Origin: Bacillus pumilus
Lineage (GTDB): Bacteria > Bacillota > Bacilli > Bacillales > Bacillaceae
Assembly (NCBI RefSeq): GCF_009937765.1
Contig: NZ_CP047089.1
Location: 516,272-556,271 of the forward strand
DNA: 40,000 nucleotides
Direction of reading: 5' to 3'
Shown here: piece after piece, positions 3,138 through 21,029 of the stretch
Position numbering within the stretch: the stretch's first letter is position 1
How the letters are laid out: the number at the start of each line of letters is the position of its first letter
Translations under genes and position numbers: made by a program
Notes under the pieces: generated by a model
The model's input: only the letters and a program-made list of their open reading frames with translations
The model's database searches: none
What the model was told of the DNA's origin: nothing

Positions 3138-3932
3138 ATGAAATCAAACCGTATCTTTATCGCTTGGCTAAGGTGGCCACTTTATCTTCGAATTGTCGTC
3201 ATCATTTGTTTCTTACTTCTTTTTTTCGGACAATTAATCGTTTTTCTCGAACCGAAGCAGTATCATACAATCTTTGATGGAATCTGGTGGGCAGTCATTA
3301 CAGTATCTACAGTGGGCTATGGTGATTTTGTGCCGCAAACCATGCCAGGACAAGTCGCGGGTATGGCTCTAATTTTTATCGGCGCAAGCTTTGTCACAGC
3401 TTATTTTGCTACGCTTGCCGCCGCTGTGTTCAGCAAGCAGCACCATTATGTAGAAGGAAAGGTTGCTTTTAAGGGGAAGGGACATCTCATCATTATCGGC
3501 TGGAATGAGAAAACGAACAAACTGCTTCAGTCATTTCAAATGATTGACCCAGCTATGCCGATTGTGCTGATTGATGACTCCTTGAAGGAAGGACCTCTTC
3601 TAGAGAATGTTCATTTTATTAAAGGACACGGCACCGAGGATGGCACACTTCGCAAAGCCAATATTTCAGGTGCAGATGCACTGATGATTACCGCAGATCA
3701 GCACGAGAATGAAGTGACAGCTGATATGCAGAGTGTTTTAACATTACTTGCAGCAAAAGGATTAAATCCCTCGCTCTACTGTTTAATTGAAATCTTAACA
3801 GATCGATATGTGAAAAATGCCGAGCGTGCTGGCGCCAATCAAGTCATTCATACCTCTGATGCAGTCAATCATTTAATGGTCGAGCATTTTCTTTTAAAGG
3901 AGGATGACATAAAAAGTCGTAGAAAACGTTAG
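3138..3932 (+). CDS. yugO: Potassium channel with TrkA-N/RCK domain (YugO-like)
   Basis: 264 aa. It has the K+ selectivity filter TVSTVGYGD, followed by an RCK-type Rossmann region (HLIIIGWNEKT...). Confidence 0.85.
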   Translation: MKSNRIFIAWLRWPLYLRIVVIICFLLLFFGQLIVFLEPKQYHTIFDGIWWAVITVSTVGYGDFVPQTMPGQVAGMALIFIGASFVTAYFATLAAAVFSKQHHYVEGKVAFKGKGHLIIIGWNEKTNKLLQSFQMIDPAMPIVLIDDSLKEGPLLENVHFIKGHGTEDGTLRKANISGADALMITADQHENEVTADMQSVLTLLAAKGLNPSLYCLIEILTDRYVKNAERAGANQVIHTSDAVNHLMVEHFLLKEDDIKSRRKR

Positions 3933-19474: not shown

Positions 19475-20100
19475 TTATCCCCCTTTCTTTGCTTCTTTTT
19501 CAAGAACCTCTAGTTTGTGCCTGATAAGTCCAAATAGGAATGCTTTGAATTGCCTTGGCGCTTCATAGACCTCTAAGAGTTCAGACGGGGAGTAATGAAG
19601 CTCATGCATGCAGTAATACAGATACACAGCCTCTTTATTCCCGTCCTTTATTAGTTTTTTGCTGCTTCTTCTAAATCTTCAATTTCATCTTCAAAACCGT
19701 TGACCTCAATGGCTTTGTTTAACCAGTTCGCATATTCACCGCCGACAGATAGGACACGCTTTGCCACTTCGACTGGATCTTGGGTGCCATATGCCTCACG
19801 CAGTTCTTTTGATTTGAAATCAGGGTAAATGGTTGATTCAACCGCAATACGTGCATAGAAGCGTTGAGAATCCAAGTCTTTCACACGTCCACGACCTTTA
19901 ACATTTTTGAAAGTCGTGTTTTCTTTCTCTAGTTCATCGATACGCTCTGTTGTGATCGCTTTGAATACGAATGGAATCACTTTACCTTCTTTATCAACGA
20001 AACGTTTTGAGATAATGGATTTGACCTCTTCCGCTTCTGTTGTTTGTCCTGGCATAAAGAATGAAAGATCATATACGTTGTTTGTTTGTTTTTCGCTCAT
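19475..20100 (-). CDS. Predicted -1 frameshift-extended tail assembly chaperone (G/GT-type fusion product)
   Basis: The zero frame ends ...EEAAKN* at 19651. Slipping at A AAA AAC opens a 59-codon frame (LIKDGNKEAVYLYYCMHELHYSPSELLEVYEAPRQFKAFLFGLIRHKLEVLEKEAKKGG*) that ends 3 nt before the tape-measure ATG. Confidence 0.6.
19651..20100 (-). CDS. Tail assembly chaperone (XkdN-like), zero-frame product
   Basis: The ORF is 19651..20238. I place the start at ATG 20100 (AAGGGAG upstream). The longer N-terminal extension would run through a terminator and the toxin promoter. The gene sits between tube and tape measure. Confidence 0.7.
   Translation of the reverse strand: MSEKQTNNVYDLSFFMPGQTTEAEEVKSIISKRFVDKEGKVIPFVFKAITTERIDELEKENTTFKNVKGRGRVKDLDSQRFYARIAVESTIYPDFKSKELREAYGTQDPVEVAKRVLSVGGEYANWLNKAIEVNGFEDEIEDLEEAAKN
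19654..19660 (-). other. Slippery heptamer A AAA AAC (programmed -1 ribosomal frameshift site)
   Basis: The plus strand reads gtttttt. On the minus strand it is in frame as GC-A AAA AAC TAA. Confidence 0.6.
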
Positions 20101-20134
20101 GTTTAAAAACTCCCTTTGATTTGTTTTTTTGAAT

Positions 20135-20167
20135 ACAAAAAAGCACATCCATTTTTTGAATGTGCTT
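20135..20167 (-). terminator. Rho-independent terminator (minus strand) between the TA module and the chaperone gene
   Basis: AAGCACAT (20141-20148) pairs with ATGTGCTT (20160-20167), followed on the minus strand by TTTTTTGTATTC. Confidence 0.55.
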
Positions 20168-20180
20168 TCCAATCTTTTCA

Positions 20181-20188
20181 TGTATAAT
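20181..20188 (+). promoter_or_regulatory. Candidate -10 element (TG-TATAAT) for the toxin mRNA
   Basis: A perfect TATAAT at 20183-20188 is preceded by TG. No good -35 lies at 17 bp: TTGAAT sits 21 bp upstream. Confidence 0.4.
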
Positions 20189-20228
20189 ATAAATCGTACA
20201 TATGAACGGCTTACAAGGGCGGTCTGGC

Positions 20229-20253
20229 TCATCCCCATATAGAAAGGGGGTGA
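20229..20253 (+). promoter_or_regulatory. 5'-UTR hairpin sequestering the toxin Shine-Dalgarno sequence
   Basis: UCAUCCCC (20229-20236) pairs with GGGGGUGA (20246-20253, the SD itself), including one U-G wobble. Confidence 0.5.
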
Positions 20254-20258
20254 TGCTT

Positions 20259-20366
20259 ATGTCAACTTATGAAGCGATTAGTTTAATGATTGCTTTTGGG
20301 ATTTATACCCTAAGCATTTTGACTTTAGTCGTGGGATTGTTGACACTATTTAAAAAGAAAAAATAG
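20259..20366 (+). CDS. Type I toxin: 35-aa holin-like membrane peptide (TxpA/BsrG 'Hol-Tox'-like)
   Basis: Not in the ORF track (<60 aa). Translation is MSTYEAISLMIAFGIYTLSILTLVVGLLTLFKKKK. The SD AAAGGGGGTGA is strong. The gene lies on the opposite strand to the whole prophage. The MSTYE... N-terminus plus one TM helix and a KKKK tail are as in TxpA-type toxins. Confidence 0.7.
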   Translation: MSTYEAISLMIAFGIYTLSILTLVVGLLTLFKKKK

Positions 20367-20405
20367 ACCTCCCTTGACCTCTACAAAAGTAAAAGGGTAA
20401 GTCTA
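20352..20405 (-). terminator. Rho-independent terminator for the antisense RNA
   Basis: On the minus strand UAGACUU-A-CCCUU pairs with AAGGGAGGUCUA (12 bp, one bulge; plus-strand 20364-20375 with 20393-20405), followed by UUUUUUCUUUUU. That U-run is the complement of the toxin's Lys codons. Confidence 0.55.
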
Positions 20406-20545
20406 TCCTTCAAAAGCATCTAGAGATAAGCCAGCCCTCTTAAAGGGCCTCATTGTACATTGCCAGGATGTTTGCGCATCCTGGCTTCTTTTTATTCTAC
20501 GCCAGTTGCAAGTTAGATATACCAACCGCAACAAATAATTATATA
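20355..20545 (-). ncRNA. Candidate antitoxin sRNA (RatA/SR4-like), about 190 nt, antisense to the toxin 3' end, 3'-UTR and terminator
   Basis: It is bounded by the TTGATT-17-TATACT promoter and the minus-strand terminator. It contains no ORF. Confidence 0.5.
20462..20495 (+). terminator. Rho-independent terminator of the toxin mRNA
   Basis: GCCAGGATG (20462-20470) pairs with CATCCTGGC (20477-20485), followed by TTCTTTTTATT. Confidence 0.75.
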
Positions 20546-20549
20546 TTTA

Positions 20550-20578
20550 AGTATATAATTCTACTGTTAATAAATCAA
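20550..20578 (-). promoter_or_regulatory. Sigma-A-type promoter on the minus strand (TTGATT-17 nt-TATACT)
   Basis: The -35 is at 20578-20573 and the -10 at 20555-20550, with an exact 17-nt spacer. It lies immediately downstream of the tube gene stop. Confidence 0.55.
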
Positions 20579-20585
20579 ATACGAA

Positions 20586-21029
20586 TTAAAAACTATCCTT
20601 CAGCTTTTCAGGAAGATCAAAGTCCTCAAACGTGAAAGGAACCTCTTCTTCTAGCGCTTCTGAATCCACATCAAGCCCCGCGATCTTTGCAGAATCGAAG
20701 TTCACATCAAACAATGTGACACGCTCTGTGCCTCGGCCGGATGATTTGTCATCCAGTACAGCTTGAATCGTAAAGTACGGATCTTGTCCCTTCTTCACGT
20801 AATTTAACATCAACTGAACGAAACGTGATGTAACCTTATAGAAAGTCGCTGTGCCAGTACCATTTGCACCGGTTGTCTTGTGCCCTGTCATACGACGGCC
20901 CATAACGTTAACTTCTGATTTATTCTTCTCCACGTTTGCCTCAAACGTTTTGATGAACGCCATTTCCTCGCCATCGAGGAAAAGACGTCCTTCCTTACCT
21001 GAAATGGTATTCTGCGCTTTAAAAGCCAT
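20586..21029 (-). CDS. Tail tube protein (XkdM-like)
   Basis: 147 aa. MAFKAQNTISGKEGRLFLDGEEMAFIKTFEANVEKNKSEVNVMG...TGTATFYKVTSRF matches the XkdM-type core tail protein pattern. Confidence 0.85.
   Translation of the reverse strand: MAFKAQNTISGKEGRLFLDGEEMAFIKTFEANVEKNKSEVNVMGRRMTGHKTTGANGTGTATFYKVTSRFVQLMLNYVKKGQDPYFTIQAVLDDKSSGRGTERVTLFDVNFDSAKIAGLDVDSEALEEEVPFTFEDFDLPEKLKDSF

Follow-up and report, generated by a model that had tools for sequence, protein, structure and literature searches.

A probable Hol_Tox-family type I toxin–antitoxin cassette with a predicted antisense RNA between the tail tube and chaperone genes of a skin/PBSX-like prophage of Bacillus pumilus

Introduction

A gap between two tail genes in a prophage of Bacillus pumilus raises a question that is easily stated: does the DNA lying there encode a toxin together with an antisense RNA that would silence it, or are its short open reading frame (ORF) and its hairpins better explained in some other way? 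The gap was analyzed within a window, by which we mean the whole stretch of 40,000 nucleotides taken from contig NZ_CP047089.1 (positions 516,272 to 556,271 of the forward strand; assembly GCF_009937765.1), and coordinates given below are those of the window unless stated otherwise. A preliminary description, made from the letters of the sequence, had placed an unannotated TxpA/RatA-like type I toxin–antitoxin module here, inside the tail operon.

The mechanism of two such systems, bsrG/SR4 (PMC3834814) and txpA/RatA (PMC3531473), has been established experimentally, and a TxpA-family toxin was already counted in B. pumilus SAFR-032 by Fozo et al. in 2010 (PMC2887945). In this report we analyze the peptide, the two RNAs and the relatives of the locus, and conclude with a probability of roughly 0.85 that the gap holds a type I toxin–antitoxin cassette of the Hol_Tox family (TxpA/BsrG/BsrE/BsrH), seated in the tube/chaperone slot of a skin/PBSX-like prophage, whose antisense RNA is predicted.

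Results

The gap and its flanking genes

The two genes that border the gap were identified by their Pfam matches:

19651-20100, minus strand: XkdN-like tail assembly chaperone gene, flanking (Pfam Phage_TAC_5, E 6e-39; start MSEKQ at 20100)
20586-21029, minus strand: tail tube protein gene, flanking (Pfam DUF2001, phage tail tube protein, E 8e-53)

The tube protein is 99% identical to its counterpart in Bacillus safensis FO-36b. The gap itself measures 485 bp, and every element listed in the preliminary description is present in it. The toxin gene had also been called the only plus-strand gene of the prophage. This stands for ORFs of at least 110 aa, as all non-shadow ORFs of that size in the prophage part of the window lie on the minus strand; the plus-strand ORF at 3138-3932 is a host K+-channel gene.

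The peptide belongs to the Hol_Tox family

The coding part of the cassette is a single short ORF, which does encode the 35-residue peptide quoted beforehand:

20259-20366, plus strand: toxin ORF of 35 aa (codons 20259-20363, stop codon 20364-20366) with one hydrophobic segment and a KKKK tail (Pfam Hol_Tox)

When the peptide is compared with the profile of the holin-like toxin family (Pfam PF16935, Hol_Tox) it reaches 52 bits (cut-off 23.3; E 6.4e-14), and the alignment runs over its full length, with residues 1-35 placed on profile positions 1-34 of 34. The features by which type I toxins are recognized can be read directly from the sequence, namely a small hydrophobic peptide, a charged C-terminus and a ribosome-binding site. 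The product is a single-pass membrane peptide with the long hydrophobic segment of the lytic TxpA/BsrG group. The gene is less novel than the word unannotated implied: an exact cluster look-up found the identical 35-aa peptide in NCBI nr on 15 contigs, in a cluster that includes a member named 'putative holin-like toxin' and whose variants differ conservatively only. A tblastn search of phage records with the peptide returned only weak matches (E 0.1-0.8), to Brevibacillus and Listeria phages and to PBP180, and these are uninformative.

The toxin mRNA is of the BsrG type

The following plus-strand elements surround the ORF:

20183-20188, plus strand: -10 box TATAAT of the toxin promoter (GTAnAAT invariant in 26 aligned cassettes)
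20197-20494, plus strand: toxin mRNA of the BsrG type, about 298 nt (Rfam RF01412)
20226-20257, plus strand: 5'-UTR hairpin burying the Shine-Dalgarno (SD) sequence (from folding; base pairs conserved in 26 cassettes)
20462-20495, plus strand: intrinsic terminator of the toxin mRNA, a 10-bp stem (20462-20485) followed by a U-tract (dG -18, z -5.4)

The Rfam family RF01412 (BsrG) matches positions 20197-20484 of the plus strand with 111.6 bits, where the gathering score is 55 (E 3.6e-27), and the covariance-model alignment, on the same strand as the ORF, is complete (model positions 1-259 of 259). The mRNA folds considerably better than shuffled sequences (z -6.2), and its consensus structure is kept in relatives. 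Transcription is predicted to start at about 20196-20197, and the Rfam match begins at 20197; no recognisable -35 element precedes the TATAAT box at 20183-20188. The SD sequence, AGAAAGGGGGUGAU at 20241-20254, is very strong, and its G-run ends 8 nt before the ATG. Folding bore out the proposal that it is buried in an 8-bp hairpin at 20229-20253, the inner 8 bp being 20229-20236 paired with 20246-20253 (dG -16.2 kcal/mol, z -3.1).

At the other end of the transcript, the clean terminator proposed at 20462-20495 was recovered by both a terminator scan and folding, and it shows compensatory changes in relatives. The 3'-UTR that it delimits is about 127 nt long, and not about 100 nt as had been estimated. 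The toxin stop codon (TAG, 20364-20366) lies within the 5' arm of a further hairpin at 20363-20406.

An antisense RNA is predicted on the minus strand

The same 3' region, read on the opposite strand, yields the elements expected of an antitoxin RNA:

20550-20578, minus strand (read 20578-20550): predicted antisense promoter TTGATT-17-TATACT (promoter scan; start predicted at about 20543)
20352-20543, minus strand: predicted antitoxin RNA, four stem-loops in about 180-190 nt (fold z -4.5; analogy to SR4)
20505-20532, minus strand: predicted SL1, the 5' stem-loop of the antisense RNA, which lies beyond the overlap with the toxin mRNA (fold dG -11.6)
20352-20406, minus strand: predicted antisense terminator, the equivalent of SL4 of SR4, with a hairpin at 20406-20363 followed by UUUUUUCUUUUU at 20363-20352 (fold dG -20)

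The antisense RNA is a prediction, as are its ends and its own promoter, and it draws on analogy with known systems. An RNA with these ends would overlap the 3' end of the toxin mRNA by about 140 nt. Its fold, with four stem-loops, is far better than that of shuffled sequences (z -4.5), and the complement of the toxin terminator (20462-20495) would form its SL2. Such a layout fits what has been reported elsewhere: SR4 is 180-183 nt long and comprises SL1-SL4 (PMC3834814; 2019 review), and four stem-loops have been described for SR4, SR5 and as-bsrH (PMC3834814, PMC2965217).

The proposed minus-strand terminator at about 20352-20405 was confirmed by folding as a hairpin and U-tract at 20406-20352; a simple terminator scan had missed it because of its long loop. 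The U-tract is the complement of the toxin Lys codons, and the plus-strand form of the 20352-20406 hairpin corresponds to SL3 of the toxin mRNA. A minus-strand hairpin followed by a T-run over the toxin Lys codons and stop codon is found in all 22 of the distinct relatives checked, among which the hairpin energies show no consistent antisense-over-sense bias. At the 5' end, 21 of 27 distinct cassettes have a hairpin in the position of SL1, ahead of the complement of the toxin terminator, and its sequence differs from one to the next.

The promoter-like site TTGATT-17-TATACT is indeed present at 20578-20550, where its -35 box begins 7 nt past the tube stop codon, yet it does not reach significance alone: it matches 9 of 12 positions, the scan finds 2 sites against 4.2 in shuffles, and the shuffle test gives p ~0.17. 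Its support lies in the relatives: in 15 of 17 distinct cassette-bearing tail-gene loci a sigma-A-like site, in many cases with an extended -10, occupies a comparable place and gives predicted RNAs of 182-235 nt. The same scan predicts 184 nt for an 18th locus, in an SPbeta-like phage, and about 182 nt for the window. In the closest relative for the promoter segment (L049) the -35 box TTGATT is kept at 6 of 6 positions, and the -10 box is TATAAT, while the spacer has diverged and matches at only 7 of 17 positions.

Another site, TTTACA-16-TAAAAT beside the toxin terminator, appeared in the first scan and was recurrent; it was rejected as the main antisense promoter since it overlaps the conserved SL1 and since the equivalent position in the SPbeta-like locus lies inside SR4. 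Searches of the minus strand against Rfam returned no curated family, either in the window (E up to 10) or in the skin locus (E up to 0.01), and no B. pumilus transcripts of the cassette locus were found in the literature.

Comparison with the cassettes of the skin element

In B. subtilis 168, Irnov et al. (2010) placed bsrH at 2678729-2678961, between yqdB and yqbM (PMC2965217), and Hol_Tox matches in one genome of our set (G040) have coordinates that coincide with this position. The corresponding region (L086) has an XkdN-like chaperone gene at 846-1295 and a tube gene at 2343-2786, both on the minus strand and in the coordinates of that region, and between these flanks two plus-strand toxin genes stand in tandem, encoding the 59-aa TxpA and the 29-aa BsrH. 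The bsrH/as-bsrH pair abuts the tube gene and txpA/ratA lies on the chaperone side. The preliminary placement of txpA/ratA beside the tube homologue in the skin element was thus essentially right, with txpA and bsrH sharing that interval. The window cassette occupies the same interval and strand as txpA, in the tube-proximal slot that bsrH holds.

The architecture had been likened to both txpA/ratA and bsrG/SR4, and this held in part. By type the RNA belongs with bsrG and bsrH, not with txpA: the BsrG model gives 129 bits for bsrH, 111.6 bits for the window and 37.7 bits (below the gathering score) for txpA. The specific likeness to txpA/ratA was not borne out, given a peptide of 35 aa and the lack of RatA-specific similarity. 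When the window is aligned with the skin element, positions 20050-20189, which comprise the 5' end of the chaperone gene, a hairpin at 20137-20169 and the -10 box, match the sequence preceding txpA with 80.6% identity over 144 nt, and positions 20214-20449, in the body of the mRNA, are 69% identical to bsrH. Alignment with txpA/ratA thus succeeds for the upstream hairpin and the -10 region; the RatA-specific region has no similar sequence in the window, and the antisense promoter region and SL1 of the window cannot be aligned with those of the skin cassettes. Judged by these alignments the cassette has a mosaic build when set against the skin element, its promoter and hairpin being txpA-like and the body of its mRNA bsrH-like.

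The peptide tells a similar story. It is identical to the TxpA N-terminus at 17 of 35 positions, sharing MSTYE and an LLTL motif, but it lacks the hydrophilic C-terminal tail of the 59-aa TxpA. With BsrG it shares 13 of 35 residues and with BsrH 14 of 27, its hydrophobic segment being 7 residues longer than that of BsrH. In sum, a long hydrophobic segment typical of the TxpA/BsrG group is carried on a bsrH-like RNA scaffold. The very strong SD of the window has parallels in TxpA and YonT (PMC3531473).

The anatomy of the cassette matches that of bsrG/SR4, where the SD likewise lies in a hairpin (20229-20253 in the window), the stop codon sits in the 5' arm of a hairpin that mirrors the antitoxin terminator (20363-20406), and a convergent antisense RNA of about 180 nt has four stem-loops; for the window such an RNA, with an overlap of about 140 nt, is predicted. 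In bsrG mRNA the stop codon is in the 5' part of SL3, whose loop makes the first contact with the SR4 terminator loop, and the SD helix has 4 bp in the free mRNA and 8 bp once SR4 is bound, the longer form blocking translation (PMC3834814). The window differs from free bsrG in that an 8-bp SD helix is predicted for the free mRNA. Loop–loop and duplex interactions in the window would follow by analogy with this system.

Distribution of the cassette among tail loci

The wider occurrence of the cassette was assessed in 79 loci encoding relatives of the tube protein, 45 of them from Bacillus and 34 from other genera. Of the Bacillus loci, 27 have a Hol_Tox ORF in the tube/chaperone gap, in every case encoded opposite to the tail genes; the loci from other genera have none. 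Gap length follows the presence of the cassette, at about 50-100 bp without one and about 410-660 bp with one. Two loci have gaps of about 1.2 kb; one of these (L020) carries two cassettes in tandem, and in the other (L032) a single toxin was found. A cassette is present at every one of the 23 loci in which the tube protein shares at least 95% identity with the query, and among the PBSX-type loci of the 90% class it is present in only four. Hol_Tox genes as such occur in 43 of 49 genomes of the genus.

The source genome contains a second BsrG-type RNA at 3.57 Mb (G000:C1:3574766-3575026, 151.9 bits), which belongs to a cassette of another element, likewise between a tube gene and an XkdN-like gene, and encodes a 27-aa peptide of the BsrE/BsrH type. 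A cassette is also found at the same junction in PBP180, a published defective phage of B. pumilus, whose annotation shows it as the hypothetical ORF18 and ORF19, spurious ORFs on the wrong strand. Both cassettes resemble that of the window in slot, orientation and mRNA type, and their DNA is approximately 76-78% identical to it over the part from promoter to terminator. They differ from it in their 27-aa BsrE/BsrH-type peptides, and the part past the toxin terminator, which includes the antisense promoter, is unrelated to that of the window. By these comparisons the tube/chaperone junction of skin-like elements is a conserved site of Hol_Tox cassettes across the subtilis and pumilus groups of Bacillus, in which different peptide types have been exchanged on one shared RNA scaffold.

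Hairpins between the tube and chaperone genes

One further element lies on the chaperone side of the cassette:

20137-20169, minus strand: hairpin and U-tract, a second minus-strand terminator or attenuator, GCACAUUC...GGAUGUGC followed by UUUUUUG (dG -16.2, z -5.1)

This hairpin is situated just upstream of the chaperone SD, overlaps the place where the -35 element of the toxin promoter would be expected, and has its homologue in the sequence preceding txpA in the skin element. Between it and the chaperone SD there is no room for a promoter. As no terminator separates the tube stop codon from the antisense region, late transcripts must run through the antitoxin sequence, and they meet two hairpin/U-tract sites before the chaperone gene. 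A cassette-free element of the PBSX type has a terminator-like hairpin directly after its tube gene. An attenuator at the tube/chaperone junction may therefore be the ancestral state, and the cassette would sit on the tube side of it. Tails are assembled by PBSX-like particles of B. pumilus (PMC8347963, which leaves the cassette unannotated), so the cassette is not expected to prevent tails from being made in such elements.

Discussion

The peptide and its mRNA belong to well-defined families, their folds stand out against shuffled sequences, and the position of the cassette between the tube and chaperone genes is conserved. On this basis a mode of action can be proposed by analogy with bsrG/SR4 and txpA/RatA, from which duplex pairing, RNase III cleavage and refolding are taken. 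A convergent antisense RNA of about 180-190 nt would be transcribed from its own sigma-A-type promoter just past the tube stop codon and would end at the hairpin and U-tract over the last toxin codons. Contact would be made between the loop of its terminator and the complementary loop of the stop-codon hairpin in the mRNA, and a duplex of about 140 bp would then spread over the toxin 3'-UTR and be cleaved by RNase III. The 5' region of the toxin mRNA would refold into a tighter SD hairpin, so that duplex cleavage and SD tightening would both keep the toxin off. Were the element or its antisense RNA lost, toxin would be made and the membrane damaged, and in this way the cassette would serve to maintain the prophage.

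How far do other explanations account for the same observations? That the ORF and the hairpins came together by chance in an AT-rich spacer has in its favor only the weak promoter statistics, and retains a vanishingly small probability; the Rfam and Pfam scores (E 3.6e-27 and 6.4e-14) refute it, decisively excluding a chance arrangement for the toxin side, and the cassette has been kept across many species. Another alternative concerns the antitoxin, which might exist only as a 3' extension of the sheath/tube mRNA ending at the two minus-strand terminators, with no small RNA made from its own promoter; the hairpins would then act chiefly to attenuate transcription and so to balance tube protein against chaperone and tape-measure protein. 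The lack of a terminator from the tube stop codon (20586) to the antisense region, a promoter that is not significant alone, and the terminator found directly after the tube gene in cassette-free PBSX-type elements would all be expected in that case. We nevertheless regard it as very unlikely, given that the late operon is silent in the lysogen, which would leave a toxin gene with a conserved -10 box unopposed. The bsrG/SR4 and bsrE/SR5 systems, of SPbeta and P6 respectively, lie outside tail operons and have antitoxins with promoters of their own, and sites resembling promoters are found at a suitable distance in 15 of the 17 distinct tail-gene loci and in the SPbeta-like phage locus.

The remaining alternative accepts the cassette but doubts its effect, treating it as an inherited and conserved remnant that causes no addiction, its small membrane peptide having no appreciable toxicity at native levels and some other role or none. 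Known relatives lend this some substance: BsrE, and probably BsrH, are toxic on overexpression only, the role of chromosomal type I systems has been described as largely unknown (both 2019 review), and TxpA shows no toxicity in E. coli (PMC2887945). Against this, the ORF is intact and retains a very strong SD and a conserved -10 box, the identical peptide recurs on 15 contigs with only conservative differences among the variants of its cluster, and the hydrophobic segment is long, as in the lytic TxpA/BsrG group. Taken together, we consider a remnant of this kind highly improbable and prefer a Hol_Tox-family toxin that is held in check by an antisense RNA.

The slot that the cassette occupies could also be functional rather than passive. 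As the antitoxin sequence directly follows the tube gene and reads in its direction, all late sheath/tube transcripts would end in a complete antitoxin and would then meet two attenuators ahead of the chaperone and tape-measure genes. The cassette could in this way couple toxin silencing to prophage induction and also set the stoichiometry of the tail proteins; pairing with the toxin mRNA and head-on transcription could in turn modulate the output of the late operon. From the mosaic build it may further be supposed that tandem cassettes recombine and so give rise to new toxin/antitoxin specificities. We think this proposal as a whole unlikely to be correct, and the regulatory coupling of cassette and operon is speculation.

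The kind of cassette described here is well known and its site was already known from the skin element, and the understanding of such systems is unchanged by it. The main value of the finding is one of annotation, as size-filtered gene calling misses both the toxin gene and its predicted RNA partner, and some published prophage annotations, such as that of PBP180, place spurious wrong-strand ORFs over the cassette. A 2019 review gave txpA/bsrG-like systems as present in only a few Bacillus species, and this example from the pumilus group, with its long transmembrane segment, modestly extends that range.

A mosaic cassette and its tandem relatives

When the cassette in the window is aligned with the B. 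subtilis 168-like skin element (locus L086), in which txpA and bsrH lie in tandem, its two parts match different modules. The upstream hairpin and -10 region (window 20050-20189) are txpA-like, with 80.6% identity to L086 1245-1388, and the mRNA body (window 20214-20449) is bsrH-like, with 69% identity to L086 1962-2177. By these alignments the cassette is a mosaic of a txpA-like upstream part and a bsrH-like mRNA body, an arrangement that fits recombination or deletion between tandem cassettes like those of the skin element. Such a pair of Hol_Tox cassettes, resembling txpA plus bsrH of the skin element, was found within the 1163-bp gap between the tube and chaperone genes of B. swezeyi (L020). 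The B. rugosus gap (L032) is similar in size at 1245 bp; a single toxin ORF was found there, and no second.

The genome of the window itself carries a further cassette within a second PBSX/skin-like element, flanked on one side by a tube gene and on the other by an XkdN-like chaperone gene; the peptide of this cassette is 27 aa long and of the BsrE/BsrH type:

G000:C1:3574766-3575026 (about 1500-1760 of locus L001), second BsrG-type cassette, 151.9 bits on the BsrG model

A B. mojavensis PBSX-type element (L035) lacks the cassette, yet the interval that separates its tube and chaperone genes holds a hairpin immediately behind the tube gene, which suggests that this junction had an ancestral attenuator:

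L035 1963-1987, terminator-like hairpin, 11-bp stem plus T-run

Toxin start codon and annotation

A second in-frame ATG lies two codons upstream of the toxin start at 20259 (window 20253-20261; product MLM-STYE...), where it overlaps the SD sequence, and it is used as the start in some public records (the 37-aa cluster members P0002 and P0005). Because the MST start is conserved in all homologues, sequence comparison favours 20259. The toxin is absent from the published annotation of PBP180, a defective phage of B. pumilus (KC847113.1), and the following entry across the cassette is probably a mis-annotation:

L084 1470-1909, tail-gene strand, ORF18 and ORF19, hypothetical, spanning the cassette

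Antisense RNA 5' end and toxin swapping

Just 5' of the stem-loop SL1 in the predicted antisense RNA lies a short AT-rich motif, TATATAATTATTT (window 20533-20546, minus strand), which is likewise placed in the predicted antisense RNAs of L049, the closest relative for the antisense promoter segment, and of an SPbeta-like phage (L085). In the skin element it is inverted, near the RatA promoter region (L086 1793-1806). The motif may serve as an alternative -10 box, or its recurrence may be due to chance in DNA that is AT-rich.

The bsrG/SR4 locus of this SPbeta-like phage, Bacillus phage SPbetaL8 (L085 1224-1337), encodes a BsrE/BsrH-type peptide in place of BsrG. Here one toxin has been swapped for another while the RNA scaffold is conserved, a phenomenon mentioned in a 2019 review.
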